Below, piece by piece: positions 3,327-21,946 of a stretch of 64,000 bases of DNA (position 1 is the first letter of the stretch; every line of letters begins with the position of its first letter). The translations under genes were made by a program, and so were the position numbers. The notes beneath the pieces are model-generated. The model searched no databases and was not told where the DNA came from. It saw only the letters and a program-made list of their open reading frames with translations. Location: positions 210,914 through 274,913 of the forward strand of contig CAVSCE010000011.1 of the NCBI GenBank assembly GCA_963726375.1, in the 5' to 3' direction. Source of the DNA: an uncultured Chloroflexia bacterium (GTDB taxonomy: Bacteria > Chloroflexota > Anaerolineae > Anaerolineales > UBA4823).

Positions 3327-4291
3327 TCAATTGCCGTTATTCTCGCTTTGGATCTCCAGCACCCGCCGGGCGGCCTCGTCGTCGGTGATCAGCGTATTGA
3401 TCAGCTCCCCGCGCAGCGCCGCGATGATGCTCTCAGCCTTTTTGGCTCCACCGGCGACTGCTACAACCTCCTTCATTTTTCCAAGCGTTTCGGCGGGGAT
3501 CGCGCACATGCGCCGGTTGATCCAGTGGTCTGTCAGGATCTTTCCATCTTTATTAAAATCAGGCAGGCGACATCTCCGACGATCCCGTCTGCCCGCATCG
3601 CCTCGACTTCTTCCAGCGGCAGATAGCCCAGCTTGTAGGCATTGTACAATTCCGGCAGCGTGGAGCCGATCCCGACCAGGCCGATATCGCATTCTGCGGC
3701 CTTATCAAGCGTATCCCGGATCATCTTGTCCTGCATCAACGCGTTCTTCGCGTCTTCATTTTCCATCAGCAGCGGCGCGTGCAGGTAATGGCAGGTGCAG
3801 CCCAATGCGTTGGCCAGGTTCGGCGCCAGCAGCGGGCCGATCGACGAGCCGTGCTCCGTGCCGGTCCCGCCGATCATCTGGACAACTTCCATATCGGGCC
3901 GGTTTTGCGGTCGAAAAGCTCGCACCATCTGGTAGAGCCCGGTCCCCCAGCTGATCCCGACGATCCTGACGCTGTTGAGCCTGGCGGTCAGATATTCCGC
4001 AGCCAGCACGCCCAGCCCCTGGAGCGTTTCCTCGTAGCTTTTATTCTGCCGGATTAAGACGTGGACCTGTCTGAGGTGGAACTTCGCCAACAATGCGTTC
4101 TCCAGCTCGCTGGATGTCCGCCACGGGTAATGGATGATGTGCTCAACAATCCCGCGTTTGTGCGCCTCCGTCAGAAGGCGTGAAATTGCGGAGCAGAGTC
4201 AAGCCAATTTCATCGGCAATCTCTTGCTGATTTCGCTCTTTGTCGTAGTAAAGTGAAGCAACTCGCGCCAGCAACTCCAGACGGCTTTGAT
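3327..4291 (-). CDS. SorC/DeoR-type sugar-binding transcriptional regulator, two apparent frameshifts (~4195 and ~3560)
   Basis: Three minus-frame pieces. The first is MPEYQSRLELLARVASLYYDKERNQQEIADEIGL, continuing in another frame as SAISRLLTEAHKRGIVEHII (HTH). The second is ORF 3533..4093 (sugar-binding domain). The third is ORF 3327..3692 (..VAVAGGAKKAESIIAALRGELINTLITDE). Confidence 0.8.
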
Positions 4292-4372
4292 ATTCGGGCA
4301 TGTAGCCATCCTTATTGGATTACTCATTTGCCGGCCGGATCCGCAGAAGACCCGACCGGCAGCTTCTTCAGG

Positions 4373-5034
4373 TTATTTCTGTTCCAACCCGGTCAGAAAA
4401 CCTCGGAAAATGTATGCAACCGAAACGCTTCCAGGGTCCGGATGACCGAGTGTTCGCTCGCCCTGGTATTTTGCCCGACCGTAATGTGCAGGAAAATTGC
4501 ATGTGCTTTCCGAGCCTTGCATCGCGGCTTGCGCAGCTTCAGCCAGCATCGCTTCCAGCGGCTCACCCTTATCCGCAGATGCTCGCAGCGCCTGGACGGC
4601 GGGGATCAGGGCGTCCATAGAGTCTTATCGCCGATGCGCGCCTTCGTTTGCCCTTCGATGGACAGCAGCCCGCTTTCGAACATCCGGGCAAATCCCTCTC
4701 CATCGAGCACGGTCAGACCTGCAGTCGCCTCGGACATCCCGAGGAAAAGCGAGCCGAACAGCGGTCCGGTTGCGCCGCCGTCGATGTCCATTAATGCCCA
4801 GGCGATATTGCCAAGCATCGCCCCCAGATCGCCTTCCGGTTCAGCCTGGATCACCTCGCCCATCTTTTCCATCGCCCGCAGCATCGTGATCCCGTGGTCT
4901 CCGTCGCCGATTGCGGCGTCCAGGTGGCAGAGCTCCAGTTTTTTCTCGCGGATGATCTCGATCGCTCCGCCAAGCATGCGTTTGAGATCTTCTTTATTTA
5001 CCTGCATAACCATGTCGGGGAAATCTCCATTCAA
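4373..5034 (-). CDS. dhaL: Dihydroxyacetone/ketose kinase subunit DhaL (copy 1), frameshift near 4618
   Basis: ORF 4606..5034 carries DAAIGDGDHG and ends ..GDKTL. ORF 4373..4618 continues MDALIPAVQAL.. in another frame. The start is uncertain (TTG 5034 or ATG ~5010). Confidence 0.85.
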
Positions 5035-5041
5035 TCAGGAC

Positions 5042-6043
5042 CTAGACCACTTTATAGTAAGCCGCATCGCAGGGCGCGTTGTAAAGCTTTTCGAGCTCGT
5101 CATCCACCCGGCCGATCGACATCTGGAATCCGCCCTGCTCTTGAACGGTGAGCAGCTCGCCGATTTGCGATCCGACCAGCTGGATCCCTTTTTCTTCAAG
5201 CACCTGGGCGACCCGGCGGAAGACGATGAACATTTCCATCAGCGTCGTGGCGCCGGTTCCGTTGATAAATACCACCAGCTTTTCGCCGGCCTTCACGTCC
5301 AAATCCTTCAGCAGGTTGTTGAGCATGATCTCGGCGGTTTCATCCGCGCTTTTCAGCTTCATCCGGCCAACGCCGGCTTCGCCGTGCTGGCCCATCCCGA
5401 TCTCCATCTCGTCATCGGGCAGCTCAAAGAACGGGAAACCGGTCGCCGGGTGCGTCGCAGGCGTGGCCGCGACCGCGATCGTCGCCGTGCTGAGGCTCAT
5501 TTTCTCGCCGACCCGCAGCACTTCATCGAATGAATACCCGGCTTCGGCGGCAGCTCCGACGACTTTGATCACCATCAGCGTCCCGATCAGCCCGCGGCGG
5601 TTGTCCTGGTCGTTCCGGGGCGCGTTCGAGATGTCATCGCTGCTCAGGATCCGCTTCATCTTCATGCCCTGACGCCCGGCCATCTGAATGACCATGTTCG
5701 AAGAAAGGACATCGCCTTCATGGTTGAACACAACCAAAACGACGCCAGCGCCGCGGTCAGCCTGTTTTAACGCTTCCATCACGCGCGGCGCACCAGGCGC
5801 AGCGAATATATCGCCCAGGGCGCAGACGTCGATCAGTCCTTTTCCGACCCAGCCGATTAATGCGGGCTCGTGCCCGGCGCCGCCCATCGTGACGACGCCG
5901 ACTTTGCCAGCCTCTTTAGGTTCGGCACGGGCGACGATCCGCTCGGCTGATTGAACAACCCGCTTGGGATTGGACTTCACGAAGCCGTCGACGAGCTCTG
6001 GGACGAGATTCTCTGCCTTGTTGATGAATTTTTTCATTGCCAT
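5042..6043 (-). CDS. dhaK: Dihydroxyacetone/ketose kinase subunit DhaK (copy 1)
   Basis: Intact 333-aa ORF with GGAGHEP, RRGLIG and GMGQHGEAG motifs. It sits 7 nt upstream of dhaL. Confidence 0.9.
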   Translation of the reverse strand: MAMKKFINKAENLVPELVDGFVKSNPKRVVQSAERIVARAEPKEAGKVGVVTMGGAGHEPALIGWVGKGLIDVCALGDIFAAPGAPRVMEALKQADRGAGVVLVVFNHEGDVLSSNMVIQMAGRQGMKMKRILSSDDISNAPRNDQDNRRGLIGTLMVIKVVGAAAEAGYSFDEVLRVGEKMSLSTATIAVAATPATHPATGFPFFELPDDEMEIGMGQHGEAGVGRMKLKSADETAEIMLNNLLKDLDVKAGEKLVVFINGTGATTLMEMFIVFRRVAQVLEEKGIQLVGSQIGELLTVQEQGGFQMSIGRVDDELEKLYNAPCDAAYYKVV

Positions 6044-6106
6044 AATTTAACCCATCCTCTCAATGTTCACTTCTGAATTTTGATAACGAAATCTTAACAC
6101 CAGTCG

Positions 6107-6118
6107 TCACAAATGTGA
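6107..6118. promoter_or_regulatory. Candidate operator TCACAAATGTGA in the dhaK1 upstream region
   Basis: The 12-mer has inverted TCACA/TGTGA arms and is identical to 20689..20700. On the minus strand it overlaps a sigma70-like TTCACA-17nt-TAAGAT arrangement 60-100 nt upstream of the dhaK1 start. Confidence 0.4.
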
Positions 6119-6146
6119 AGACATGGGAGAATTTGACCGATCGAGA

Positions 6147-8005
6147 TCAGATCGTCCGGTCATTGCCGCCGTCGATCTGGATTTGCCCGCCGGTCATGTG
6201 CTGGAACAGCGGGCCGCACATCTCGGCGACCAGCTCAGCCACATCATGACTTTTTATCTCGGTTTTCAGCAGGTTGCGCTTCTTATACTGATCAACCGTC
6301 ATGCCGTAATGCGCAGAGCGCGCCTTCAGCACCTCTTCGGTATACAGGGCGGTATCGAAGACTGCGTCAGGGTGAATGACGTTCACCCTCACCCGGTCGC
6401 CGCCCCATTCCAGCGCAGCAACGCGCGCAAGCTGGGTGACGGCTGCTTTGGAAGTCGAATAGGCCGCCGCGCCAGGCCCCGGGGCGCGCATGTTCTTGGA
6501 TCCCACGACGACTACCCGTCCGTAGCGCGGCGCCAGCCGCAGCAGCGGGAAAGCCTCGCGCAGGATCACCATGTTCGAGACAAAATTGATGTTTAATACC
6601 TTCGTGAATTCAGCCAGGGTCAGCTTTTCAATGTGAACTCCGCCGGGGAAAAGCCCGGCATTCAGCACCAGCATGTCCAACCCGCCGAATTCAGCCCCAA
6701 CCTTCTGGAGCGTCTTGATCACATTTTCTTCATCTGTGATATCACATTCCATCCCGCGATAGCACGGATGATCGAATGTGCGAACGATCTCCGGATTGAT
6801 GTCGATACCGACCACGCTGCTGCCGCGCCGGAGGAGCGACTCGACGCAGGATTTCCCAATTCCAGAAGCTGCGCCAGTGACCAGCGCCACTTCTCCCGAG
6901 AACGGGAGCAGCTCAGGCCGTCTGGCAGCCGTCCATTTTGCTGCAGATTGGAGATCCTCGAGCGCCAGCGGGTGGTATTCCCCCAGCCGGGCAGCCGTTC
7001 GGACTGCCAGGACGCCATCGTGGAAAAAGCCCGACGCTTCCTTCGCTTCGCGGGCCAGAATCGGCAGCCGCGATCGCTCCCATCCCGGTCTTCCACAGGA
7101 TGCTCGCGCCAAGCGCAAGATTCGGCCGGCAGAGCTCCTTCGCTGAATTCTCCATCCGGGACGCGCACCGGGATGCCTGTACGGGCGAAGCGGCTCGGAA
7201 CCGGCAGCCCGGATTGAAGCACCTGTTCGCCTGCTTCCGATTCGATGAATTCTCGGATCTCCGCGAAATCATCCAGGTGCAGAACCAGGGGACGGCCTCG
7301 TTGGGACGAGATCCGGTAGCGGATCTTTGGAAGCTCCAGTTTGTCGCCTGGCGAAAGCGCTTCTTCAGCTGGCTCTTCGGCCGGCAGCCGGTCTTGCGCG
7401 ATTTGAGCGAGGCGCGCAAACGAGCTGCAGCATTCCGCGCTGGTTTCGCCGCCGACCAGCAGCCCCCGGTTGAGCAGGACATATGCGCAGCGGACCTGGG
7501 CTGCGCGCGTGATCCTCCTGCACAGCCGGCGCATGTCCGCATCAAACGGGGCGATCAACGCAGCTTCTTTGTACCATTCGTGCAGGACCTGAGAGCCATT
7601 CTTCAGACAGGAGGCTGCCAGGATCGGCAGCGGTTCGCCAAAACAGACATATTTTGAAGTCAGCGCGGCGTGCAGCAGTGCGATGGGTGGGGGCATCGGT
7701 GTCTCACAGAGAGCCCTGCTGTTTGAGAGCGCCTCTCCCAGCTCGGTCGGATCGAAAACCGGCAGCTCGCTCAAACCTTGCAGCGCCTCCAGCCGCACGC
7801 ATGCCCAGCCTTCTGGATCTGGGAGGACGGGCGAAGTCCAGCTGACCTGTCCGATCAGAAGCAGTGATTCCTGGATCCCGAATATATTCCGCCACGATGT
7901 CTTAATGGAGATGGACAACCCGGGCCGGACCCATTGGGTTTTCGTGATGGCCTGGCTGAACTGCCTGATTTCTGTTCTCAGCGCCTCGACGAGATATTTT
8001 TCCAT
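6147..8005 (-). CDS. Class-II-aldolase/adducin-like domain fused to a short-chain dehydrogenase (YuxG/RhaEW-like architecture), frameshift(s) ~7100-7140
   Basis: ORF 6719..8005 is the N-terminal domain (..PPPIALLHAAL..VLLNRGLLVGGETS..). ORF 6147..7118 is the SDR (VTGAASGIG, NAG, YSTSK, PD). The order and size match bifunctional aldolase/SDR proteins. Confidence 0.7.
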
Positions 8006-8111
8006 ACGAACTGGCCTCCAATAAGCCAGGCATTCAGCCTGACAAAGTTTTCAATGGATTTTGCTGCCGGACCATCAAATACCGATCAGCATTGGAATTC
8101 AAAAAAGTCCA

Positions 8112-8176: not shown

Positions 8177-8200
8177 CGCTGACGACCAGGAGGACCAGTA

Positions 8201-8986
8201 TTAGCGCTCGAAAGTTTCGTAAACTTCAAAAGCCTGCTTGGGCGTGTATCCCTCGTGGATCACGCTCTTCAGGGCACGCGCCATCGCGCGCGGCCGGTCG
8301 TTCTGCCAGATGTTCCGGCCAAGGTTCACACCGATCGCGCCGCCTTGCATGCCCTTGTAAACGAATTCGAGGACTTCGAAATCGTTGTCGGTCTTTGGAC
8401 CGCCGGCTATCACAACCGGAACCGGGCAGCCGCCTGCGACTTTTTCGAAATTATCGCAGTAGTAGGTTTTAACGACGGTAGCGCCCATTTCTGCGCAGAT
8501 CCGGCAGGCCATCGCCAGGTAGCGCGCCTCGCGCTTGTCCATCTCCCGACCCACGGCGGTCACAGCCATCACCGGGATGCCGTAAGGCTCGCACCAGTTA
8601 ACCAGCTGGGCCAGGTTCAAGATCGAATCGTGTTCGTAATCGCTGCCGACGAAGACGGAAATCCCGATCGCGGAAACATTCAGCCGCAGCATCTCGTCAA
8701 CCGACGTCGTGATGCCTTCATTAGAGAGATCACCGCCGGACATGCTCGTGCCGCCGCTTACGCGCAGGATGATCGGGGTTTCGGTCGTAGGTGGAATTTG
8801 CGAGCGGAGCACGCCGCGCGTCACAAACAGGGCGTCGACGAACTCAACTAAAGGAAGCGCCGCATTACCGACGTGTTCCAGCCTGGAAGTGGGGCCCTGG
8901 AAATAGCCGTGGTCCATGGCCAGATAGAAGCACTTCCCATCTTGCTTGATTACTTTTGATACTCGGTTGGCTTTACCCCAATCCAT
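8201..8986 (-). CDS. Class-I aldolase, DeoC/FbaB(DhnA)/LsrF family (copy 1)
   Basis: Taken from the internal start MDWGKANRV (ATG 8986, AAGGAG 9 nt upstream) within ORF 8201..9175. It has ..LAMDHGYFQGP.., the putative Schiff-base Lys in GATVVKTYY, and GVNLGRNIWQ. Confidence 0.8.
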   Translation of the reverse strand: MDWGKANRVSKVIKQDGKCFYLAMDHGYFQGPTSRLEHVGNAALPLVEFVDALFVTRGVLRSQIPPTTETPIILRVSGGTSMSGGDLSNEGITTSVDEMLRLNVSAIGISVFVGSDYEHDSILNLAQLVNWCEPYGIPVMAVTAVGREMDKREARYLAMACRICAEMGATVVKTYYCDNFEKVAGGCPVPVVIAGGPKTDNDFEVLEFVYKGMQGGAIGVNLGRNIWQNDRPRAMARALKSVIHEGYTPKQAFEVYETFER

Positions 8987-8995
8987 AATAGAAAA

Positions 8996-9197: not shown

Positions 9198-9209
9198 TCA
9201 CGAATGTGA
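9198..9209. promoter_or_regulatory. Candidate operator TCACGAATGTGA in the divergent aldolase/ABC intergenic region
   Basis: One mismatch to the 12-mer at 6107 and 20689. It lies inside the spacer after a TTGACC hexamer (9185..9190). Confidence 0.35.
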
Positions 9210-9252: not shown

Positions 9253-9292
9253 TTGACAAACTCACATATGCATGCTATATTCACGTATGTGA
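9253..9292 (+). promoter_or_regulatory. Sigma70-like promoter with an overlapping operator, facing the ABC importer operon
   Basis: TTGACA (9253..9258), 17 nt spacer, then TATATT (9276..9281). TCACGTATGTGA (9281..9292) overlaps the -10 and TCACATATGCAT (9262..9273) lies in the spacer. Confidence 0.45.
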
Positions 9293-9652: not shown

Positions 9653-11138
9653 ATGCAAAAACATCGATTTTTCAACACCGTTATGGTAGCGCTCTTGCTG
9701 CTTGGCTTGCTTGCAGCAGCTTGCGCCCCGGCTCCTACCCAGGCCCCGGCGCCCGCCGCAACCGAAGCTCCTGCTGCTCCAGCTCCCGCTGAACCCGTTG
9801 CTACCGAAGCTCCGGCTGAACCCGTTGCTACCGAAGCTCCAGCCGAGCCGGTCGCGACCGAAGCGCCTGCAGCCGAAGCGCCGAAGTCCGATGTCGAGCT
9901 GGTCTTCGTCTGGCACTCCGGTGGTCTCGGCGAGAAGTTTGAAGAGCTCGCTCAGCAGTACACCGCGTTGACCGGCGTAAAAGTTCGTGCGGACCTGGTC
10001 CCCTACGGCCCGCAGTGGCACGACAAGATCGCGGCCGAGTTCGCAGCCCAGGGCTCCGGCTTTGACCTGGCGATGTTCGACAGCCAGTCGATGTCCGAGT
10101 TTGCCTCCGGCGGTCACGTCGTTCAGCTGAACGACTACATCGACCAGAGCGAGCTGATCAGCGCTGAGGACTTCACCCCCGCTGCCCTGCGCCAGTACGG
10201 CGAGTATCCGGAAGGCTCTGGCAACATCTTCGCCCTCCCGATCAACCAGGACTGCATGGGCCTCGTCTACCGCAAGGACCTCTTTGAGGATCCGGCCGAA
10301 AAGGAAGCCTTCAAGGCCAAATACGGCTACGAGCTGGCTGTCCCCACCACCTACATGATGATGCGCGACATCGCTGAATTCTTCACCCGCCCCGAAGAGA
10401 ACCTCTACGGCCTGGCCTCCTACGGCAGCCGCGACTACGATGCGGTCACCAGCCCGCTGGACGGCGTGATCTGGTCGTACGGCGGAGCCCTCTGGGATCC
10501 TGAGACCAAGATGGCCCAGGGCGTGATCAACTCCGAGACCAACGTCAAGGCGCTTGAGTATCTACGCCGACCTGTTCCAGTTCATGCCCCCCGGCGCATC
10601 TGCCTGGTTCTACGACGAAGTCAACAACGCGGTCCACACCGGCATCGTCGCAATGGCGATCAACTGGTACTACTTCTTCTTCGTCCACGCCGACCCGGCG
10701 ATCAACCCCTACGCCGACAAGATGGGCTACGACGTACTCCCCGGCGAGATGGTCGACGGCAAGCTCAACCGCGGCATTTCCGTCGGCGGTCAGGGTCTTT
10801 CGATCTCGGCTTACTCGAAGAACATCGAAGAAGCCTGGAAGCTGCTCGAGTGGTTCATGACCAACGAGATCCAGTGGCAGTGGACCGAGATCGGCGCACA
10901 GACCGGTCGGGTCGACATCCTCACCGATCCAAGATATGTCACGACCAAGCCATGGAACGAGACCTTCCCTGAGTCGATGAAATATGTCCAGGATTACTGG
11001 CACGTGATCGAGTATCCTGAGCTGCTCGACATCTGGCAGAAGTACGCCAGCCTGGTCGTCTCCGGCGAAATGGGCGCGAAGGAAGCGCTGGACGCCGTCG
11101 CCGTGGAACACCAGGCGATCATGGATCAGATGGAGTAA
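9653..11138 (+). CDS. CUT1-family extracellular sugar-binding lipoprotein of the ABC importer, frameshift near 10558
   Basis: MQKHRFFNTVMVALLLLGLLAAAC is a lipobox signal, followed by a Pro/Ala/Thr/Glu linker. ORF 9632..10972 loses sense after ..NVKALEY. ORF 10554..11138 continues IYADLFQFMPPGASAWFYDEV.. to the stop. Confidence 0.8.
9791..9871 (+). repeat. 3 x 27-bp tandem repeat encoding (EPVATEAPA)x3 in the lipoprotein linker
   Basis: GAACCCGTTGCTACCGAAGCTCCGGCT is repeated at 9791, 9818 and (diverged) 9845. It is in frame within the SBP. Confidence 0.9.
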
Positions 11139-14287: not shown

Positions 14288-15361
14288 ATGTCTGAAGTCA
14301 ATATCATAGGTTTACAGAAGAGTTTTGGAGATGTCCAGGCGTTGAACGATGTCTCGTTTGACGTGAAGGATCACGAGTTTGTGACCATGCTTGGGCCTAC
14401 CGGCGCAGGAAAAACGACGACACTCCGCTGCGTCGCCGGTTTGGAGAAGCTGGATTTGGGCGAGATTCATCTCAGCGGAGCAAATATCAACATGCTGCCT
14501 CCTGGCCAGCGAAATATGGCCTTTGTTTCACAGCATTACGCCCTGTACCCGCATATGACGGTTCGCCGCAACCTGCAGTTCCCGCTGGACAAAACAGAAA
14601 TGACCAGCGATCAGAAGAAAGCGCGGATCGATGAGATCGCCAAGATCCTTCACATCGTCCCGCTGCTTCAGCGATATCCGAGCAAGCTGAGCGGCGGTGA
14701 AATGCAGCGCGTTGTCATCGGGCGAGCGATGGTCCGCAGCCCGCAGTTGTTCCTGCTGGATGAGCCGCTGTCCAACCTGGATGCCAAGCTTCGGGAAGAG
14801 CTCCGCTTCGAGCTCAAACGCTTGCAGAAAGAGGCCGGTTCGACCACGCTCTACGTCACCCACGACCAGATCGAGGCGATGTCGATGTCAGACAGGGTCG
14901 TGGTGATCGACAAAGGTGTGCTGCAGCAAATCGGCAGACCATCCGAGATTTATTCCTATCCTGCAAACGTTTTGGTTTCCAGCATCGTCGGCACCCCCCC
15001 GATGAACATCGTACCCGTGGTCGTCGGCGATAATCGCTTCAATCTCGAAACGAATGGCCACGGCGCAGAGCTGCCCTCCAACTATAAGAACATCCTTGCA
15101 CCCGGGAAATATCAGCTGGGTGTTCGCCCGGAAAATGTAAAACTTGTCTCAAAATCGGCTCCGAACGCCCTACCGGCCGAGGTATTGGTGATCGAAGCGT
15201 TTGGATACGAAAAGCTGGTGGAGATCGATCTGGCGAAGACCCGAGTCCGCGCCCGGGTTTCGCCGCGCACAAAGCTGAAGGTCGGCGAGAAAATTTTTAT
15301 CCAGCTCGATGAGAATAAGACGCGTTTCTTCGATGTCAGCGGTACGTTGATTCGCTCCTGA
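14288..15361 (+). CDS. MalK/UgpC-like ABC ATPase 2, with a canonical signature
   Basis: Starts MSEVNIIGLQKSFG. Has GPTGAGKTT, LSGGEMQRV, LFLLDEPLS and THDQ. It begins 10 nt after ATPase 1. Confidence 0.85.
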   Translation: MSEVNIIGLQKSFGDVQALNDVSFDVKDHEFVTMLGPTGAGKTTTLRCVAGLEKLDLGEIHLSGANINMLPPGQRNMAFVSQHYALYPHMTVRRNLQFPLDKTEMTSDQKKARIDEIAKILHIVPLLQRYPSKLSGGEMQRVVIGRAMVRSPQLFLLDEPLSNLDAKLREELRFELKRLQKEAGSTTLYVTHDQIEAMSMSDRVVVIDKGVLQQIGRPSEIYSYPANVLVSSIVGTPPMNIVPVVVGDNRFNLETNGHGAELPSNYKNILAPGKYQLGVRPENVKLVSKSAPNALPAEVLVIEAFGYEKLVEIDLAKTRVRARVSPRTKLKVGEKIFIQLDENKTRFFDVSGTLIRS

Positions 15362-15378: not shown

Positions 15379-15546
15379 ATGGAAAAACGAAAAAAATTTG
15401 GTATTTACGGAGATATGATCGCGATTGGGCTGATCATCGCCGGATTCTTGATGATGGTTCAACCGCTGACGATGTTGCTGTACACGATTGGATTTCCAGT
15501 AATCCTGTCAGGCGTCGTTCTGTTTAATATCAGCTCGCATTATTAG
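15379..15546 (+). CDS. 55-aa two-TM small membrane protein (below the ORF-track cutoff)
   Basis: My own translation gives MEKRKKFGIYGDMIAIGLIIAGFLMMVQPLTMLLYTIGFPVILSGVVLFNISSHY. GGAGGA lies 7 nt upstream. The ORF fills the gap between ATPase 2 and dhaK2. Confidence 0.5.
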   Translation: MEKRKKFGIYGDMIAIGLIIAGFLMMVQPLTMLLYTIGFPVILSGVVLFNISSHY

Positions 15547-15570
15547 GATCTTTCCAAAGGGACAGATCTC

Positions 15571-16575
15571 ATGGCAAAGAAGATAATCAACAACCCAAAG
15601 GATGTCGTCCAGGAGACGATTTCTGGTTATTTGATGATGCACCCTGGAGAGTTTCGCCAGCTGGAAGGCGTCACGGCCATCGTAAAGACTCAGCTGGACC
15701 CGGATAAGGTCGGGTTGGTCATCGGCGGAGGCAGCGGGCACGAACCGATCTTCCTCGAATTCATTGGCAAGGGCTATGCCGATGCGGTTGCGATGGGCAA
15801 CATCTTCGCCGCCCCGTCCCCGGATATCGTCCTCGCCGCGACCCAGGCGGTCGACCGGGGCAAGGGCGTCCTTTACGTATATGGGAATTACGCCGGCGAC
15901 AACCTGAATTTTGACATGGGCGCAGAGCTGGCCGATCTGGAAGGCATTCGGACTGAAACCGTGCGCGTCTGGGATGATGTCGCATCGGCGCCGCCGGAAC
16001 GCATCACCGACCGCCGCGGCATCGCCGGAGATTTTTATGTGATCAAAGTCGCTGGCGGCTGCTGCGATGCCGGCCTTGACCTGGATGAAGTAAAAAGGAT
16101 AACTACCAAGGCGCGAGACAATACCCGCACCATGGGCGTCGCCCTTTATCCAGGCACGATCCCGGGTGAAGGCACACCCGCCTTCACCCTCCCGGAAGAT
16201 GAGATTGAAATCGGCCTGGGCCTGCACGGCGAACCGGGCGTCCGCCGCGGCAAAATCCAGCCAGCGGATAAACTGGTCGACGAGATGATGTCGCTGATCG
16301 TCCCCGACCTGCCCTTTAAGGCCGGCGACGAGGTTTGCGCACTGATCGACGGCTTTGGATCAACGACGCGCATGGAGCAGCTGATTGCGATGCGCCGGAC
16401 TCTGCAGAACCTCGAACACATGGGCTTCAAAGTTCACCAGGCGGATGCGGGTGCTTACGCGACCTGCCAGGAGATGGCCGGTTTTTCGATCACCCTGATG
16501 CGCCTGGATGAAGAGCTTAAAAAGTATTTCGATTGGCCGGTTTGGTCGACGGTTTACAAGAACAGGCCGCGGTGA
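15571..16575 (+). CDS. dhaK: Dihydroxyacetone/ketose kinase subunit DhaK (copy 2)
   Basis: Intact 334-aa ORF with GGGSGHEP, NYAGD, DRRGIAG and GLHGEPG. Confidence 0.9.
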   Translation: MAKKIINNPKDVVQETISGYLMMHPGEFRQLEGVTAIVKTQLDPDKVGLVIGGGSGHEPIFLEFIGKGYADAVAMGNIFAAPSPDIVLAATQAVDRGKGVLYVYGNYAGDNLNFDMGAELADLEGIRTETVRVWDDVASAPPERITDRRGIAGDFYVIKVAGGCCDAGLDLDEVKRITTKARDNTRTMGVALYPGTIPGEGTPAFTLPEDEIEIGLGLHGEPGVRRGKIQPADKLVDEMMSLIVPDLPFKAGDEVCALIDGFGSTTRMEQLIAMRRTLQNLEHMGFKVHQADAGAYATCQEMAGFSITLMRLDEELKKYFDWPVWSTVYKNRPR

Positions 16576-16582
16576 GCTGTTT

Positions 16583-17230
16583 ATGGAAAGCCTGACAGCT
16601 TCTCAGCTAAAAGACATGCTGATGCATGTCGCGAAATCAGTCATCGATTCAAAAGAACAGCTTTGCGAGGCCGATCGGAATATCGGCGACGGCGATCACG
16701 GAATCGGGATGGCGCTGGGCATGGAAGCCGCTGCCAACGAGCTGGCTGCAAAGGAATTCACCGACGTCTACGCTGTTTTCGGGACCGTTGGACGTACGAT
16801 GATCAAAGTGATGGGTGGGGCCTCGGGCATCATCTTTGGCCTGCTTTTCTATGCAGGCTCGAAGAACATGCAGCCGAAATCCGAGCTGTCCACGCAGGAT
16901 TTCGCCGAAGTCTTCGCCAGGGCGTTGGCCGAAATCCAGGCTAAGGGCGGGGCACAGCTGGGAGACAAGACCATCGTGGACGGGCTGCAGCCGTTCGTCG
17001 AAGCGCTGCAAAAAAGCCAATCTGCTGGAGAGGGCTTCAAGCCATTGCTTCGTGCAGGCTATGCTGCCGCCGAGGCCGGGAAGGAAAAAAGCAAGCAGTA
17101 CATCGCCCGTTTCGGCAAAGCAAAAACCCTCGGCGAGCGGGCGGTTGGTTTCCCGGACGCAGGCTGCGTGACGCTGACGGTGATTTCCAGGTCGATGTGT
17201 GAGTGGGCAGACGCGAACCTGGCGGAATAA
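16583..17230 (+). CDS. dhaL: Dihydroxyacetone/ketose kinase subunit DhaL (copy 2)
   Basis: Starts MESLTASQLKDML (ATG 16583) within ORF 16508..17230. Has DRNIGDGDHG and GDKT. Confidence 0.88.
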   Translation: MESLTASQLKDMLMHVAKSVIDSKEQLCEADRNIGDGDHGIGMALGMEAAANELAAKEFTDVYAVFGTVGRTMIKVMGGASGIIFGLLFYAGSKNMQPKSELSTQDFAEVFARALAEIQAKGGAQLGDKTIVDGLQPFVEALQKSQSAGEGFKPLLRAGYAAAEAGKEKSKQYIARFGKAKTLGERAVGFPDAGCVTLTVISRSMCEWADANLAE

Positions 17231-17246
17231 ATCTATTCTCCTCCCT

Positions 17247-17285
17247 GATCGAAGCCGATCTGTTCTCGACGGATCGGCTTCGATC
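17247..17285 (+). promoter_or_regulatory. Perfect 14-bp hairpin downstream of dhaL2, with no U-tract
   Basis: GATCGAAGCCGATC (17247..17260) pairs with GATCGGCTTCGATC (17272..17285), leaving an 11-nt loop. Confidence 0.55.
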
Positions 17286-17333
17286 GAGAGCAGCTGCCCG
17301 ACTGAAAAAGATCGATCGTGAGTGGCAACCAGT

Positions 17334-17363
17334 TCCGGCAGGATTTTCCTGCCGGAGTTTTTT
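17334..17363 (+). terminator. Canonical intrinsic terminator between dhaL2 and rpiB
   Basis: TCCGGCAGGA-TTT-TCCTGCCGGA forms a 10-bp stem, followed by GTTTTTT. Confidence 0.7.
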
Positions 17364-17391
17364 CTGAACTTGAAGAAAGCAAGGAACCCGA

Positions 17392-17856
17392 ATGCCGGCA
17401 AAAGAATTGATCTTAGGCTGCGACTTTGCTGCAGTAAAGCTTATGAAGGTAGTCCGCAAGCTGCTTGAAGACCAGGCGATCGCTTACACGTTCATCGGGG
17501 TCGAAGACGAATCGGATGAGACGGCCTATCCACTGATCGCCCGGCAGGTCGCTGAAGCGATCATCGCGAGCGGTTATCAGAAAGAAGGAATTTTGATCTG
17601 CGGCACCGGGATTGGAATGTCGATCAGCGCCAACAAGTTCCCGGGGATCTATGCCGCGATCTGCCACGACGGTTATTCAGCCGAGCGGGCGCGCCTGAGC
17701 AACAGCACCAACGTGCTCTGCATGGGGGCGCGCGTGATCGGGCCTGAGCATGCCAAAAAAGTTCTCAGCGCCTGGTTGAAGACTGAGTTTCAGGGCGGGC
17801 GCTCCCAGGCGAAGCTCGATCTCATTCGATCGTTTGAGCAGGAGCTCTACCGATGA
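17392..17856 (+). CDS. rpiB: RpiB/LacA/LacB-family sugar-phosphate isomerase
   Basis: Intact 154-aa ORF with ICGTGIGMSISANK, NVLCMGARVIG and FQGGRSQ. Confidence 0.85.
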   Translation: MPAKELILGCDFAAVKLMKVVRKLLEDQAIAYTFIGVEDESDETAYPLIARQVAEAIIASGYQKEGILICGTGIGMSISANKFPGIYAAICHDGYSAERARLSNSTNVLCMGARVIGPEHAKKVLSAWLKTEFQGGRSQAKLDLIRSFEQELYR

Positions 17857-18638
17857 GCCTTCGGTTCCAGACCTTGTTTGTGGGCTCAAACTTGAAGATG
17901 TACCAGACGAACCGCCAGACGCTGGAGTTCCTGGATCAGCTCCAGCAGCTCACGGGCGATATCCCGCGCTCGCAGCTGAAATTGTTCATCCTGCCGTCCT
18001 ATACGGCTCTGGCTGATGCCTGCCGGATGGTGGATCACGGTCGGATCTGGATCGGTGCGCAGAACATGCATTGGGAAGAGCAGGGCCAGTTCACCGGCGA
18101 GATTTCGCCCATCCAGCTGCGGGATATCGGTGTCGATCTCGTTATGGTCGCCCACGCCGAGCGCCGCCAGCACTTCGGGGAAACCGACGCGCTGGCGAAC
18201 CGCAGGGTGCTTTCAAGCCTGGCGCATGGTTTCCAGACCCTGCTGTGTGTCGGAGACCGCCGCGAAGACCTGCAGTCCGGGCGGTCGGCGGAGGTCTTAA
18301 GCCGCCAGCTGGAGGTTGGATTGACGGGCGTGAATTCCGAACAGGCAGACCGCTTGTGGGTCGCCTATGAGCCGGCCTGGGCGATCGGTGAGGGTGGGAC
18401 GGTCGCCGACCCTGCTTTTGCAAACGAGATGCACGCGGTCCTGCGCATGATCCTCAGGAAATGCTTCCCGGACCGGGAAGCGGGCGTGCCGCTGCTCTAC
18501 GGCGGCAGCGTGAACTTGGAGAATGCGGTGGATTTGATCCGCCAACCCGAGATCGACGGGCTGTTCATCGGCCGCGCCGCCTGGGACGCAGCCCGGTTGA
18601 ATCGAATCGTGCGCGATACCCTCGCTACCCGGCGTTGA
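17853..18638 (+). CDS. Triose-phosphate-isomerase-family protein (non-canonical, EryH/TpiA2-like inferred)
   Basis: 261-aa ORF whose start overlaps the rpiB stop (ATGA). TIM motifs are present but altered: SNLKMY, VAHAERR (canonical GHSERR), YEPAWAIGEG (canonical YEPVWAIGTG), YGGSV. Confidence 0.8.
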   Translation: MSLRFQTLFVGSNLKMYQTNRQTLEFLDQLQQLTGDIPRSQLKLFILPSYTALADACRMVDHGRIWIGAQNMHWEEQGQFTGEISPIQLRDIGVDLVMVAHAERRQHFGETDALANRRVLSSLAHGFQTLLCVGDRREDLQSGRSAEVLSRQLEVGLTGVNSEQADRLWVAYEPAWAIGEGGTVADPAFANEMHAVLRMILRKCFPDREAGVPLLYGGSVNLENAVDLIRQPEIDGLFIGRAAWDAARLNRIVRDTLATRR

Positions 18639-19675
18639 GCTCCGGGTTGATCGAAACCTTCATCGCCGTTCCAGCGATCATCAATTTAAGCGCTTCTTCG
18701 GTCTGCTCGAGCGGCATCTCGCCCGAGAGCATGAAGCGCGTGTCGATCAGGCCTGACGCGACCAGGTTGCAGGACTCCCAAAAATCGACCGGGGAGTTGC
18801 CGTGCGTGTTGAACAGGCTGATTTCGCCGTAATGGACAGCCGGCGCGTCGAGTTCGACGATCGTCCCGCTCTTCAATCCGCCGAACCACAGCACCCGACC
18901 TCCGCGCCTTGCAGCGCGCACTGCGCCTTCCCAGGTCTCCTTCGCTCCGGCGCATTCGATCGAGACGTCCGCGCCGCGCCCGGCGGTGAGATCGCGGATC
19001 GCCTGAACGGCGTCCGCACGGCCCGCGTTGATGATCGCAGAGGCGCCGAGCTGCCGGGCATACTCCAACCGCTCGTCGTTGCGGTCGACCACGATCACTT
19101 CCGCCGCCCCGGACGAACGGGCGAGCTGCAGGTGCATCAGGCCCACTGCCCCGCCGCCGCCCATAATCGCGACCTTCTCGCCGGGTCGGATCTGGATCAT
19201 TTTATGCGAGTGGACGACCGAGGCCAGCGGTTCCATCAGGGCAGCCTGGGCGTAGCTCAGGTGCTCGGGGACCACAAGCGTGTTCCAGCGCACGAATGTG
19301 CCGGGAAGCCTGACGTACTCCGCATAGGCGGCAAAGTTGTGAATCATGTTCTCGCAGATGTTTTCCTGGTGGTGCTTGCACGGGTAGCAGGCGCCGCAAG
19401 GCCCAAAACAGCTGGCAGTCACGCGCATCCCCAGGCTGAAATTCTCCACCATGCGGGCCTATCTCAACCACGTCCCCTGCAAATTCGTGCCCAAACAGGA
19501 ACGGAGGCGGGTATTTCGGGTGCCCGCGCAGGTAGGTTTTAACGTCGGTGCCGCAGGTTGTGGCCGAGCGAACCTTGACGAGCATTTCATCCGGGCCGAT
19601 CACCGGCATCGGCACTTCCTGCACCTGCAGCTTTTCAGGTCCCAAATAGACGACAGCGCGCATTGTTTTTGTCAT
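18625..19675 (-). CDS. Zn-dependent medium-chain polyol/alcohol dehydrogenase (sorbitol/threonine-DH-like), frameshift near 19450
   Basis: ORF 19202..19693 is the N-part (CGTD..GHEFAG). ORF 18625..19452 is the remainder (structural-Zn CGACYPCKHHQENIC, Rossmann MGGGGAVG). It is convergent with the TIM-like gene and overlaps it by 14 nt. Confidence 0.8.
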
Positions 19676-19689
19676 GGATTTATCTCGCG

Positions 19690-20572
19690 TCAAAGTTGTT
19701 GAGCCGCGCCAGCCATATTCAGCTCGGCGATCGCGCCTGTAAAATCTTGCTCGTGGACGATCTTCTGGATCGCGCGGATCATTTTTTCGGGGTGGGGGTG
19801 CTGCCAGACGTTCCGGCCGAAAGTAATCCCCGAGGCGCCCCGCTGGATGCAGACCAGCACATCATGCAGCATCTCCTCGACGCACTGGCTTTTTCCGCCG
19901 CCCAGCAGCACGATCGGAGCCGGGCAGGACTCTGCGATCCTTTCCATCTCCTCCGGCACGTCCGGGAAATCGCTTTTCACCACGTCTGCCCCGATCTCGA
20001 ACGCGATCCGAGCCATATCCGCCAATATTTTCGAAATCTTTAATCGGCTTTCCCTCGAACCGCAGCCCCCAGGTGGTCGGCTCGATCATCACCGGGATCC
20101 CCAGTCGATGGCAGCTCTCGATGGTCGCTGCGGCAAAAGCCATGTTGTCGATCTGGCGGTTGCTCTGCTCCTGACCGAAGATCAGGCAAATCTTGACCAT
20201 ATCCGCGCCCAGGCGGGCCGCCTCTTCGGCGGAAATGGTGGGCACCTGACCGTCGGTCCTGTCGCCGCCCGGGAAGTTCGCAAACAGTGGGAAATCGACC
20301 GCCAGGATCACCGCCGGCGACTCTCTGCCGGTGAGCAGATATCCAAAGCGGCGCAGCGCCCCGGGATTCACCAATATACCTTCAGGCTTGCCGGCTAAAA
20401 CCTGCTCGAGGCGTTCGCCCAGGTTCTCCAGGCCGGCAACAGCGCCCATCGCGACGCCGTGGTCAACCGCGACTGCGACGCACCGGCCTGTCTCTTTATT
20501 AAACAGACGGCTGGTGCGGATTGTGACTCCATAATCAAAAGCCTGGTTCAGCATGAAGGACACCTCGTTCAT
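19690..20572 (-). CDS. Class-I aldolase, DeoC/FbaB(DhnA)/LsrF family (copy 2), frameshift near 20042
   Basis: ORF 19862..20572 makes sense up to ..FEGKPIK. ORF 19690..20025 continues KISKILADMARIAFEIGADVVKSDFP (putative Schiff-base Lys)..FGRNVWQ. Confidence 0.78.
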
Positions 20573-20632
20573 GGATGGATGGAATTTCAGATTATTTTGG
20601 TGGTCCGCCTGGATCGAGCAGCGGATGTTCGA

Positions 20633-20700
20633 TTGACAAATCCGAAAATGAGCGTTAAACTAGCAATAATTACATTTGTGATATTATATCACAAATGTGA
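20633..20700 (+). promoter_or_regulatory. Sigma70-like promoter followed by a 27-bp perfect palindrome, upstream of the PFP-type pfk
   Basis: TTGACA (20633..20638), 17 nt spacer, then TAAACT (20656..20661). The palindrome ACATTTGTGATAT-T-ATATCACAAATGT spans 20672..20698 and contains TCACAAATGTGA at 20689..20700. Confidence 0.55.
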
Positions 20701-20728
20701 CGAAATAGGCAGGTCTCAGGAGGTTGTC

Positions 20729-21946
20729 TTGACGAAGCTCAAAGGGAATCTTGTTGTCGGGCAGTCGGGTGGGCCGAGCGCTGTGATCAACGGCTCGGTC
20801 TGCGGTGTTGTTCAGGAGGCATTTCGACACCCGGAAATCGAAGAGGTTTACGGTATGCGCCATGGGATCGAAGGGTTGCTCCGCGAAGACCTGCTGGACT
20901 TTCGCAAGGAAGCGCCGGATGATATTGATGGGCTGCGCAAGACGCCTTCTTCTGCATTGGGATCCTGCCGCTTCAAGACCAGCGATGACGACCTGGAGCA
21001 GATCGTTCGGATCTGCCGGCTGCATAACATCCGCTTCTTCATGTATGCCGGCGGTGGAGATTCGATGGATACCGCAGACAGGCTTTCAAGAGCCGCATCG
21101 GCTCAAAATTTTGAGATGCGGATCATCGGCGTCCCTAAAACGATTGACAACGATCTTCCTGTCACCGACCACTCTCCGGGATACGGCTCGGCGGCGCGCT
21201 ATATCGCGACGATATGTACCGAGATGAAGCGAGATGCGATCGCACTGCGTCACACTGAAAGGGTCAAGATCCTCGAGACGATGGGCCGCAACAGCGGCTG
21301 GCTGGCAGCAGCCTCGGCGCTCGCCGATGATTACGCCCCGGACCTGATCTATCTCCCAGAACGGCGGTTGACAGAAGACCAGATCCTGGCGGATATCGAC
21401 GACTTGCTCCGCACAAAGGGTTTCGTCTTCCTGGCCGCTAACGATGGATTGAGAAAGCCGGACGGGAGCTTCATCTCGATGAATACCGATCCGCTGAACA
21501 CCGATGCCTTCGGCCACCCGGAGCCGGGTGACCTGGGCAAATATCTCGCCGATCTGGTGATGACGAAGCTGAAGGTCAAAGCGCGCGCCGATAAACCCGG
21601 GATCATCCAGCGCTGCGCCGGGCAGTTTATCTCTCCAGCGGATGCGGACGAAGCTTATCGCGTCGGGCAGCGGGCGGTCATCCAGGCTGCCGCCGGCGAG
21701 AGCGGGCAGATGATCACGCTCGTCCGCGAGCCTGGCGAGCCTTACGTCTGCTCTACCGGCGCTGTCCCGCTCGGTCTGGTCTCGAACCTTGAAAAATTAG
21801 TCCCAGGCGAATACATCCATCCGTCTGGAAACCAGGTTGCGGAAAAATTTAAGGAATATGCTCGCCCGCTGATCGGCGGGCCTCTCCCGGATTATGTCAC
21901 GCTGAAAGCTTTTCCGGTCAAGAAGCTTCTGAAGCAGCCATCCTGA
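20729..21946 (+). CDS. Phosphofructokinase, long PFP(PfpB)-like type; phosphoryl donor not resolvable from sequence
   Basis: TTG start with AGGAGG 5 nt upstream, within ORF 20459..21946. Has GQSGGPSAVINGSV, GGGDSMDT, GVPKTIDNDL and MGRNSGW. Length 405 aa. Confidence 0.8.
   Translation: MTKLKGNLVVGQSGGPSAVINGSVCGVVQEAFRHPEIEEVYGMRHGIEGLLREDLLDFRKEAPDDIDGLRKTPSSALGSCRFKTSDDDLEQIVRICRLHNIRFFMYAGGGDSMDTADRLSRAASAQNFEMRIIGVPKTIDNDLPVTDHSPGYGSAARYIATICTEMKRDAIALRHTERVKILETMGRNSGWLAAASALADDYAPDLIYLPERRLTEDQILADIDDLLRTKGFVFLAANDGLRKPDGSFISMNTDPLNTDAFGHPEPGDLGKYLADLVMTKLKVKARADKPGIIQRCAGQFISPADADEAYRVGQRAVIQAAAGESGQMITLVREPGEPYVCSTGAVPLGLVSNLEKLVPGEYIHPSGNQVAEKFKEYARPLIGGPLPDYVTLKAFPVKKLLKQPS

Follow-up and report, generated by a model that had tools for sequence, protein, structure and literature searches.

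The erythritol pathway of Brucella and rhizobia, reportedly described by Barbier et al. 2014, comprises EryA, EryB, EryC, EryH/TpiA2, EryI/RpiB and the regulator EryD. The tetritol routes of Mycobacterium smegmatis are said to have been worked out by Huang et al. 2015, and the D-apiose oxidative pathway, reportedly due to Carter et al. 2018, involves the RuBisCO-like decarboxylase oiaX/oiaC, a four-carbon acid sugar kinase, LerI and DerI. Here we analyse a 64-kb window (the whole stretch of DNA under study) from contig CAVSCE010000011.1 of an uncultured Chloroflexia bacterium, and in it an island of genes that encode paralogues of RpiB and of triosephosphate isomerase (TIM), two kinases of the dihydroxyacetone kinase (DAK) family, an ABC importer, a Zn-dependent polyol-type alcohol dehydrogenase (ADH) and a SorC-family regulator. 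In M. smegmatis, the erythritol, L-threitol and D-threitol pathways consist of EltD, DthD, LerK, DerK, LerI and DerI (summarised in PMC10733421 and PMC12994016), of which LerI and DerI convert L-erythrulose 1-phosphate to erythrose 4-phosphate (PMC10733421). In cellulolytic clostridia, the replacement of transaldolase by a pyrophosphate (PPi)-dependent 6-phosphofructokinase (PFK) and an aldolase has been documented (PMC7029132).

The best explanation of the island is a conserved catabolic regulon, about 20 kb long, of an Anaerolineae-type Chloroflexi bacterium. We give about an even chance to the reading in which it imports a small polyol, most likely a tetritol, and converts it to erythrose 4-phosphate by oxidation, a DAK kinase and the TIM/RpiB isomerases. 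In this scheme the CUT1 ABC system would import the tetritol (erythritol or threitol), the Zn polyol dehydrogenase would oxidise it to erythrulose, and the two-subunit kinase DhaK2/DhaL2 would phosphorylate the latter, presumably with ATP. The TIM paralogue would then convert L-erythrulose 1-phosphate to D-erythrulose 4-phosphate, and the RpiB paralogue would convert that to D-erythrose 4-phosphate. The SorC protein, sensing a sugar phosphate, would probably repress all units through a shared palindrome. More speculatively, DhaK1/DhaL1, the aldolase AldA and a fusion protein with a short-chain dehydrogenase/reductase (SDR) domain would form a separate branch cleaving a phosphorylated hydroxy-ketone to dihydroxyacetone phosphate (DHAP) and a C1 or C2 fragment. 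The pathway type, from tetrulose phosphate to erythrose 4-phosphate, is known; new are the extra branches, of which the LsrF-like one is undescribed, and the attached PPi-PFK/aldolase unit.

The isomerase pair

The rpiB and TIM-family genes are translationally coupled, their stop and start codons overlapping in the ATGA at 17853–17856, as the earlier note on this DNA had stated. The two unusual motifs it had pointed out in the TIM paralogue, AHAERR at residue 100 and AIGEG at residue 177, are indeed present in the translation, along with the catalytic residues K15, H101 and E173. AHAERR is limited to the window and one 94%-identical protein, the other members of the close clade having GHAERR. 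None of the NCBIfam TIM equivalog cut-offs is reached by the paralogue. Among solved structures it matches best, by a narrow margin, 11ef, an entry named L-erythrulose-1-phosphate isomerase (39% identity, compared with 35–38% to housekeeping TIMs).

Loop 8 reads DGLFIGRAAW in the window and DGLFIGRSAW in 11ef, whereas the canonical enzymes 1b9b, 6bve, 4y8f and 7rgc have DGALVGGASL-type sequences. Loop 6 is AIGEGG in the window and DIGENG in 11ef, compared with AIGTG in the same four canonical structures. The loop-8 form [DN]GLF[IV]GR[SA]AW is common to the window clade, to the solved LerI and to paralogues from Rhizobium, Klebsiella, Pasteurella and one soil contig; among four Firmicutes representatives, the scan recovered it only in Aequitasia. 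A non-canonical loop 6 (IGE, IGV or IGA instead of IGTG) is found in all but one of the paralogues. These signatures were defined from the sequences compared here, not from the literature, and the assignment of the TIM paralogue is based on them and on gene context rather than on a neighbour-joining tree.

One genome per species was scanned with a profile built from the closest clade of the TIM paralogue. The nearest relatives are Chloroflexi metagenome-assembled genomes (MAGs; 56–66% identity), followed by a large Lachnospiraceae/Erysipelotrichaceae group at about 50%. RpiB is encoded within 5 kb of the paralogue in 51 of the 80 genome loci, directly upstream in 25, and a DAK kinase is present in 23. 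Annotated Rhizobium plasmid loci combine oiaX (3-oxo-isoapionate-4-phosphate decarboxylase), a four-carbon acid sugar kinase, TIM and RpiB. The Pasteurella cluster contains PdxA-like, DhaK, DhaL, SorC, RpiB, TRAP, TIM, tal and tkt, and that of Klebsiella has PdxA, a kinase, RpiB, tal and tkt beside TIM and SorC. The TIM and RpiB clusters of the Firmicutes are of three types: with KdgT/DUF1537/PdxA; with a CUT2 ABC system, a fused 590-aa DAK and sometimes a Zn-ADH; and with a CUT2 ABC system, UPF0261 and a RuBisCO-like protein. Recurrent genes in Firmicutes that had been considered as URO-D-like neighbours of TIM/RpiB proved to encode the RuBisCO-like protein and UPF0261.

Some gut Firmicutes loci (L014, L018, L026, L040, L044, L057, L061; L-numbers denote related loci and contigs fetched for comparison with the window) carry a fused DAK, TIM and RpiB with an FGGY kinase, a kinase of the ADP-PFK/glucokinase family and a class II fructose-bisphosphate aldolase. 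Here, independently, an aldolase and a PFK-like kinase once more accompany the DAK–TIM–RpiB module.

By these sequence comparisons and the analogy with LerI and DerI, the TIM/RpiB pair resembles a general-purpose funnel leading tetrulose phosphates to erythrose 4-phosphate. The earlier proposal that these are tetrulose-phosphate isomerases and not housekeeping enzymes thus agrees with the LerI-type loops, the scores below the TIM cut-offs and the RpiB-adjacent relatives. The companion claim, that annotation would overlook the pathway, holds only in part: in JGI several 52–61%-identical TIM homologues already bear the name "L-erythrulose 1-phosphate isomerase".

Conservation of the island and a candidate operator

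The complete array, as established by mapping the window proteins, is found in L002, L003, L004 and L070, where the TIM paralogue is 56–66% identical. The shared order is fusion and AldA; then SBP (the solute-binding protein), permeases, ATPases, a small peptide, DhaK2, DhaL2, RpiB and TIM; then ADH and AldB; then PFK and a URO-D-like gene. L001 and L167 have only part of this array, and the left arm, consisting of AldA, the fusion, DhaK1, DhaL1 and SorC, is kept in L083–L085, relatives at 88–93% identity found in a metagenome scan with DhaK1. Since the array recurs in this way, the arrangement is not due to chance. Named homologues of ADH and RpiB come from MAGs of Anaerolineales, Leptolinea and Anaerolineaceae.

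The two ATPases are 81% and 80% identical to L001 proteins. The 55-aa peptide encoded next to them is 76% identical to an L001 gene product (L001:2365-2532) and 68–80% identical to its counterparts in the Chloroflexi loci L002–L004 and L070. A peptide of 55–56 aa lies between the second ATPase and DhaK2 (L003:7578-7748), and one in L131, beside a related transporter, shows 38% identity. It may be a transporter accessory subunit.

The palindrome TCAC-N4-GTGA occurs in three intergenic regions of the island. The window contains 11 matches with at most one mismatch, compared with 2.5 expected, and four of the five exact sites in the window fall in island intergenic regions, where the palindromes overlap or adjoin the best promoter-like hexamer pairs (Table 1). 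The motif is found at orthologous intergenic positions in eight related loci (L001–L004, L070, L083–L085); about 2 Mb of other fetched loci gave five matches. It is situated 70–114 bp upstream of DhaK1 in L084 and L085, at the same position between AldA and SBP in L002, L003, L004, L070 and L083, between AldB and PFK as one conserved site in L003, L004 and L070, and upstream of AldB in L001. This phylogenetic footprint shows that both arms, the ADH–AldB unit and the PFK–UROD unit belong together, as one candidate regulon. Most simply, the island SorC protein would be the common repressor acting at the palindrome. In NCBIfam it comes nearest to DeoR (198 bits) and LsrR (163 bits, the LsrR cut-off being 486), both scores below the cut-off.

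Importer, dehydrogenase and kinases

The ADH belongs to the polyol (sorbitol/L-iditol) dehydrogenase group of Zn-ADHs, and JGI names its homologues "L-iditol 2-dehydrogenase". The two ATPases score 391 and 374 bits with the UgpC-like model NF008653, below its cut-off, and the SBP has no match in NCBIfam.

In both kinases DhaK and DhaL are encoded by genes of their own and do not form a single fused polypeptide. A split kinase also occurs in Pasteurella and in soil contigs, the Firmicutes homologue being the fused 590-aa form. Both kinases match the fused DAK model better than the PTS-type DhaK model. Of all NCBIfam models, DhaK1 matches best NF011049, the fused "dihydroxyacetone kinase family protein" (341 bits; DhaK1 is below the DhaK equivalog cut-off), and DhaK2 and DhaL2 score 400 and 169 bits with the same family. 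DhaK1 is 38% identical to the L001 orthologue of DhaK2. In the translations, both kinases keep the substrate histidine (GLHGE/GQHGE) and the nucleotide motif GDGDHG. No DhaM-like gene turned up in general family scans of the island genes, although no search aimed at DhaM was made.

A DAK-kinase-fed funnel to erythrose 4-phosphate, with a Zn polyol dehydrogenase, is well supported by the loop signature and the gene contexts of the TIM paralogue. From it we infer a tetritol substrate by analogy, because the Zn polyol dehydrogenase, the DAK kinase, the LerI/DerI-type isomerases and the ABC importer make up the M. smegmatis component set. Of the sequence of import, oxidation, phosphorylation and isomerisation to erythrose 4-phosphate that had been suggested for this locus, the funnel stands; the four-carbon substrate has the status of a proposal, the relatives of the SBP being non-discriminating.

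The left arm and its LsrF-like module

AldA scores 352 bits with NF006081, "3-hydroxy-5-phosphonooxypentane-2,4-dione thiolase" (LsrF), above the cut-off of 297, and aligns with E. coli LsrF over the full length (257 bits). Its VVKTYY aligns with IIKTYY of LsrF; thus, the lysine that is replaced in the solved variant 4p2v (IIATYY) is conserved.

In the fusion protein, the SDR half is recognised by adh_short (139 bits) and by NF006196, "bifunctional aldolase/SDR" (399 bits). The intact L085 homologue of 627 aa reaches 439 bits with the RhaEW-like bifunctional aldolase/SDR model (PRK08324), below the cut-off of 831. In the N-terminal domain no Pfam family, including Aldolase_II, was detected; hhalign to class II aldolases gave 10% probability, with NRG in place of NHG, and a search of solved structures yielded one weak match (E 0.001).

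The trio DhaK1–DhaL–AldA is found in 28 of the 40 metagenomic loci with enough flanking sequence, mostly soil and sediment contigs at 55–60% identity. In 24 loci the module is joined by a gene for an ABM-domain protein of about 103 aa, whose start lies 24–57 bp beyond AldA in 18 cases. NCBIfam yields a single match for it, LsrG, with 20 bits over the full length against a cut-off of 135. The window has no ABM/LsrG gene (best tblastn E 0.036); the SDR fusion occupies its position. The loci with the ABM gene suggest an undescribed Lsr-like module with a DAK kinase instead of LsrK. A literature search found no paper on the combination of LsrF, DAK kinase, TIM and RpiB, nor on apulose.

In the soil contigs the neighbours of the trio include AraC regulators, APC permeases, lactonases, SDRs, Zn-ADHs, aminotransferases and GH140-like genes. 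One contig, L117, joins the DhaK1–DhaL–AldA module to RpiB, TIM, DhaK2 and DhaL2; hence an unrelated lineage brings the two modules together as well. GH140 apiosidase-like genes (L117:15091-16716 and L117:2592-4028; also in L112 and L114) flank the DAK/LsrF-like/RpiB/TIM cluster in these probable soil-bacterial contigs, which hints at apiose-containing plant polysaccharides as the substrate source there.

The second DhaKL pair is probably more than a kinase of the other erythrulose enantiomer, as it is linked to the LsrF-like AldA across phyla. Judging from this linkage, kinase 1 probably heads a cleavage reaction that gives DHAP. The branch could involve aldol cleavage, for instance of erythrulose 1-phosphate to DHAP and formaldehyde, or LsrF-type thiolysis of an oxidised intermediate.

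AldB, PPi-PFK and the URO-D-like gene

AldB is closest to the archaeal MJ0400/DhnA aldolases: the best solved match of its L003 orthologue is MJ0400 (130 bits), and the score with NF005556 is 178 bits, below the cut-off of 241. The open reading frame (ORF) 20459-21946 encodes a PPi-type PFK, scoring 451 bits with NF010675 (cut-off 273; 468 for the L003 orthologue); translation probably starts at the TTG at 20729, which follows an AGGAGG. PFK and the URO-D-like gene are syntenic in L003, L004, L070 and L167. In L003 the start of the URO-D-like gene (L003:14025-15248) overlaps the PFK stop, and the shared operator lies ahead of the PFK–UROD unit. The URO-D-like protein scores 56 bits with the MtaA/CmuA family, against a cut-off of 235, stays far short of every family threshold and has no obvious role in sugar metabolism.

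More speculatively, on the basis of position and the shared operator, AldB would join erythrose 4-phosphate and DHAP to sedoheptulose 1,7-bisphosphate, and the reversible PPi-PFK would convert the latter to sedoheptulose 7-phosphate. Such a route would be the reverse of the clostridial bypass and would parallel the tal–tkt genes of the Pasteurella and Klebsiella clusters.

The window holds three PFK-family genes: a truncated fragment at 1307-1960 (-), the PPi-type gene at 20729-21946 (+) and an ATP-type-like gene at 57424-58674 (-), below cut-offs.

Interrupted genes

Six island genes (SorC, DhaL1, the fusion, SBP, ADH and AldB) are broken by 1-bp frameshifts or an in-frame stop. The intact 330-aa SorC homologue of L085 matches 4312-3351 across two frames; for DhaL1, the alignments in two frames meet at 4618; the intact 471-aa SBP homologue of L003 also aligns across two frames, as do the intact ADH homologues of L001 and L003, and the ADH indel is visible in comparison with L167. 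Protein identity to relatives is high on both flanks of each break, and the orthologues of the interrupted genes are intact in L003 and L085. In an alignment of about 10.6–10.8 kb, window positions 17005-27960 differ from the 93%-identical contig L167 by 25–26 single-base indels (one of two bases), many of them inside genes, including 19453 and 19597 in ADH and 20036 in AldB. L167 carries breaks of its own at other positions. Beyond the island, a GH94 (cellobiose/chitobiose phosphorylase-like) gene at 23172-25649 (-) is in three ORFs and is split differently in L167.

The frameshifts most likely are assembly errors, because L003 and L085 are intact, non-island genes (GH94, the PFK fragment) are split too, and the lesions of L167 differ. 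The window appears to come from an error-prone, probably long-read, metagenome assembly, and therefore an ORF-based reading of it needs frameshift-tolerant methods.

Alternative explanations

Several observations weigh against the tetritol reading. The TIM paralogue scores 180.5 bits with 11ef (LerI) and 177.1 bits with the TIM of Thermotoga maritima, and the neighbour-joining tree, while splitting the paralogues from the canonical TIMs in the expected topology, does so with weak bootstrap support. The RpiB paralogue passes the generic equivalog (TIGR01120, 141.8 bits against 138.65) and fails the rhizobial DerI model (NF051858, 134.9 against 240), although that model is lineage-specific, so that the failure lowers membership and not function; JGI calls its homologues RpiB, and by models it is not separable from RpiB. 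A terminator-like hairpin separates DhaL2 from rpiB, with no promoter-like site after it; it could be an attenuator or a device setting the expression ratio. The best solved relatives of the SBP are trehalose- and maltose-binding proteins (100 and 93 bits) and the sugar ABC SBP 5iai (92 bits), which do not discriminate disaccharides from polyols. ATP use by the kinases is assumed, and what AldA, AldB, the SDR fusion, PFK and the URO-D-like gene do is guesswork. Finally, the same isomerase pair serves apiose clusters and clusters with four-carbon acid-sugar kinase and PdxA, and the distant L117, with both kinase modules, is flanked by the apiosidase-like genes.

Because the isomerase pair serves several upstream routes, erythrose 4-phosphate as the product does not fix the input. 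The same funnel could thus be fed by something other than a tetritol, such as free erythrulose or tetroses, an apiose-derived branched compound (apiitol or apulose), or a larger polyol cleaved by the aldolases. The LerI/RpiB-type pair does occur in the RuBisCO-like/apiose clusters of Rhizobium and Firmicutes and in those with PdxA and four-carbon acid sugar kinase; L117 has AldA, RpiB, TIM and both kinase modules amid GH140-like genes and a lactonase; the known tetritol route has no place for two aldolases and an SDR fusion; and the SBP is uninformative. However, the regulon, in the window and its Chloroflexi relatives, contains no glycosidase, lactonase, RuBisCO-like protein or DUF1537 kinase, and a Zn polyol dehydrogenase and DAK kinase directly upstream of the isomerases are the simplest match to the tetritol route, so we regard another input as somewhat unlikely. 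Ordinary use of glycerol or dihydroxyacetone beside housekeeping metabolism, with DhaKL making DHAP, the TIM gene encoding the cell's triosephosphate isomerase, and the other genes (RpiB, PFK, aldolases) encoding normal pentose-phosphate and glycolytic enzymes, would agree with the family-level names, the RpiB score, the single TIM-family gene of the window and a PPi-PFK that could be glycolytic. It is nevertheless very unlikely, as the TIM paralogue is below all TIM equivalog cut-offs and shares replaced phosphate-gripping loops with LerI, its orthologues lie in dedicated catabolic clusters of four phyla and are typically accompanied by RpiB, the operator is common to these genes and to those for the regulator, importer, dehydrogenase and two kinases, and the same window has two further PFK-family genes.

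For the left arm, an Lsr-like processing pathway with a DAK kinase replacing LsrK would be compatible with the tetritol reading of the right arm. In it, a hydroxy-diketone resembling 3-hydroxy-5-phosphonooxypentane-2,4-dione (P-HPD), derived from autoinducer-2 (AI-2)/4,5-dihydroxypentane-2,3-dione (DPD) or from an SDR-oxidised deoxy-ketopentose, would react with CoA to give DHAP and acetyl-CoA through the LsrF-like enzyme. The LsrF equivalog score, full-length alignment and conserved lysine of AldA point this way, as do the SorC/LsrR-like regulator, the recurrent trio and the ABM gene whose only match is LsrG. Yet the window lacks an LsrG-like gene, an FGGY kinase and an LsrB-type transporter; the LsrG similarity elsewhere is far below the cut-off; the aminotransferase, lactonase, GH140-like and APC permease neighbours look like nutrient catabolism, not signal quenching; and LsrF-family enzymes may be plain aldolases. 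Such a pathway is hence quite improbable. That the island is a decaying pseudogene set without current function, as six interrupted genes might indicate, is hardly credible and was rejected: single-base lesions occur across the whole window, including the GH94 and PFK genes beyond the island, the 93%-identical contig from a similar assembly differs by 25 single-base indels and has its own breaks at other positions, and the L003 and L085 orthologues are intact, with high identity on both sides of the breaks.

Returning to the tetritol reading, its fullest form would combine a DAK-initiated, LsrF-type cleavage branch with a route from tetritol to erythrose 4-phosphate whose product needs no transaldolase to enter metabolism, a pairing so far undescribed, both under one SorC repressor at TCAC-N4-GTGA; as a whole it is unlikely. 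Here the branch would be the Chloroflexi version of a widespread, undescribed soil module (DAK kinase, LsrF-like and LsrG-like proteins) converting a phosphorylated hydroxy-ketone or diketone to DHAP and an acyl-CoA or C1 unit, and erythrose 4-phosphate would combine with DHAP to form sedoheptulose 1,7-bisphosphate and then sedoheptulose 7-phosphate by the class I aldolase and PPi-PFK.

Layout of the island and its surroundings

The features are collected in Table 1. On the minus strand the left arm is transcribed in the order AldA, fusion, DhaK1, DhaL1, SorC, with a terminator-like hairpin at 3278-3255 at its SorC end. Divergent from AldA, the plus strand carries SBP, the permeases, the ATPases, the 55-aa peptide, DhaK2, DhaL2, RpiB and TIM. 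The AldB–ADH unit is on the minus strand, convergent with the TIM end of the right arm. All genes listed in the earlier note were found at or near the coordinates it gave, by Pfam, NCBIfam and the ORF listing; overlooked there were the broken genes, the 55-aa peptide, the co-regulated PPi-PFK and URO-D-like genes and the confinement of AHAERR to the window and one other protein. An Rfam scan of window positions 1-26000 found no RNA family.

Table 1. Features of the island, and loci with the ABM gene
Feature	Position	Strand	Basis and remarks
SorC-family sugar-phosphate-sensing regulator	3327-4329	-	Pfam Sugar-bind on both pieces; in-frame stop near the helix-turn-helix, frameshift near 3557
DhaL1, nucleotide-binding subunit of kinase 1	4373-5034	-	Dak2 cut at 101/174 in ORF; frameshift ~4618
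DhaK1, substrate-binding subunit of kinase 1	5042-6043	-	Dak1, 329.5 bits
Operator-like palindrome TCACAAATGTGA	6107-6118		Upstream of DhaK1; overlaps promoter-like site 6119-6091 (-)
Fusion: divergent class-II-aldolase-like N-domain and SDR C-domain	6147-8005	-	Frameshift between ~7049 and 7187
AldA, LsrF-like DeoC-family class I (Schiff-base) aldolase/thiolase	8201-8986	-	NF006081
Promoter-like sites	9253-9281, 9168-9140	+, -	AldA/SBP region
Operator-like palindromes TCACGAATGTGA and TCACGTATGTGA	9198-9209 and 9281-9292		Divergent AldA/SBP control region
CUT1-type solute-binding protein (SBP)	9653-11138	+	SBP_bac_1 on both pieces; frameshift ~10554-10561
Two ABC permeases	11352-12287, 12300-13142	+	BPD_transp_1
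Two MalK/UgpC-type ABC ATPases	13183-14277, 14288-15361	+	ABC_tran and OB_MalK/TOBE
55-aa hydrophobic membrane peptide	15379-15546	+	Conservation; no Pfam family
DhaK2 and DhaL2, split DAK-family kinase 2	15571-16575, 16583-17230	+	Dak1, 361 bits; Dak2, 161 bits
Terminator-like hairpin between DhaL2 and rpiB	17331-17369	+	13-bp stem and T-run
RpiB-family sugar-phosphate isomerase, candidate D-erythrulose-4-phosphate isomerase	17392-17856	+	LacAB_rpiB (PF02502), 154.5 bits
TIM-family paralogue, candidate L-erythrulose-1-phosphate isomerase	17853-18638	+	PF00121, 232 bits
Zn-dependent polyol-type dehydrogenase (ADH)	18625-19675	-	ADH_zinc_N and ADH_N; 1-bp insertion at 19453
AldB, DhnA/MJ0400-type class I aldolase	19690-20554	-	DeoC family; 1-bp deletion at 20036
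Paired operator-like palindromes	20670-20681, 20689-20700		Divergent AldB/PFK control region, just downstream of promoter-like site 20633-20661 (+)
PPi-dependent 6-phosphofructokinase subfamily	20729-21946	+	NF010675
URO-D-like protein	21970-23187	+	PF01208 on L003 orthologue
Loci with ABM gene downstream of the LsrF-like aldolase	L098, L100, L107, L108, L112-L114, L117, L119, L122-L124, L127, L136, L140, L150, L153		e.g. L112:12553-12864

Some neighbouring genes may be mentioned. An N6/N4 DNA methyltransferase gene at 2069-3115 (-) adjoins the island in the window; the C-terminal 90 or so residues of its product look out-of-frame. In L003 (Chloroflexi MAG RBG_16_57_11) the gene adjoining the island, at 15381-16745 (-), encodes an ApeA-like HEPN defence protein (ApeA_NTD1 and HEPN_Apea), which is absent from the window. 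At 33546-41944 the window carries the whole kdpABC operon for a potassium pump, together with genes for the sensor kinase KdpD and a response regulator of the KdpE type; the sensor region runs on into a second ORF at 40689-41255.

Implications and comparison with known systems

If the tetritol reading is true, tetritol/tetrulose-phosphate catabolism, so far known from Alphaproteobacteria and Actinobacteria, extends to the Anaerolineae, abundant and poorly cultured bacteria of sediment and sludge. The loop-8 motif DGLFIGR[SA]AW would serve as a practical marker separating LerI-type isomerases from housekeeping triosephosphate isomerase. The analysis also offers hypotheses: a predicted SorC operator and regulon, the participation of PPi-PFK and a class I aldolase in the uptake of erythrose 4-phosphate into metabolism, and a function for the widespread pairing of DAK kinases with LsrF-like proteins now annotated as autoinducer-2 thiolases. 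Existing knowledge is not overturned; annotation is refined, and enzymes are put forward that might be characterised and used in synthetic erythrulose-phosphate pathways.

The island belongs neither to the Brucella Ery system nor to the Lsr system. With the Ery pathway it shares the last two steps, by TIM and RpiB paralogues leading to erythrose 4-phosphate, and a SorC-family regulator. However, in the island oxidation would precede phosphorylation, the kinase is of the DAK type, and Pfam and NCBIfam revealed no EryA (FGGY erythritol kinase), EryB-type dehydrogenase or EryC-type isomerase among the island genes. The E. coli Lsr system (LsrK, LsrG, LsrF, LsrR, LsrACDB) resembles it in the match of AldA to the LsrF model, the SorC/LsrR-family regulator and a kinase encoded alongside, but the island kinase is DAK-type and not FGGY, the importer is CUT1 and not LsrB/CUT2, LsrG is missing and an SDR fusion is present.

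The D-apiose clusters contain the same TIM/RpiB paralogue pair in translationally coupled order, with DhaK nearby in the Rhizobium loci, whereas the island lacks the RuBisCO-like protein, the DUF1537/UPF0261 kinase and apiose dehydrogenase, and its importer is CUT1, not CUT2. The clostridial sedoheptulose-1,7-bisphosphate bypass (PMC7029132) uses PPi-PFK and an aldolase instead of transaldolase; the island likewise has a PPi-type PFK and a class I aldolase of the fructose/sedoheptulose-bisphosphate type, co-regulated with an erythrose-4-phosphate-producing module. Here, though, the link is positional and regulatory only, and the aldolase is of the archaeal DhnA/MJ0400 type.

Compared by kinds of components, not by direct comparison with the mycobacterial protein sequences, the island would work most like the M. 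smegmatis tetritol route. Both have an ABC importer, a Zn polyol dehydrogenase, two DAK kinases, a TIM-family isomerase (LerI; a candidate in the island) and an RpiB-family isomerase (DerI; likewise a candidate), an SDR is present as for D-threitol, and the product erythrose 4-phosphate would enter the pentose-phosphate pathway. The mycobacterial kinases are single fused polypeptides, whereas those of the island are split; the island forms one regulon with a single RpiB, in the phylum Chloroflexi, and its SDR is fused to a degenerate aldolase-like domain. It adds two class I aldolases, one of them LsrF-like, a PPi-PFK and a URO-D-like gene. Thus, as had been noticed earlier, the split kinases, the second kinase set, the aldolases and the SDR fusion set this locus apart from both the mycobacterial and the Brucella routes.

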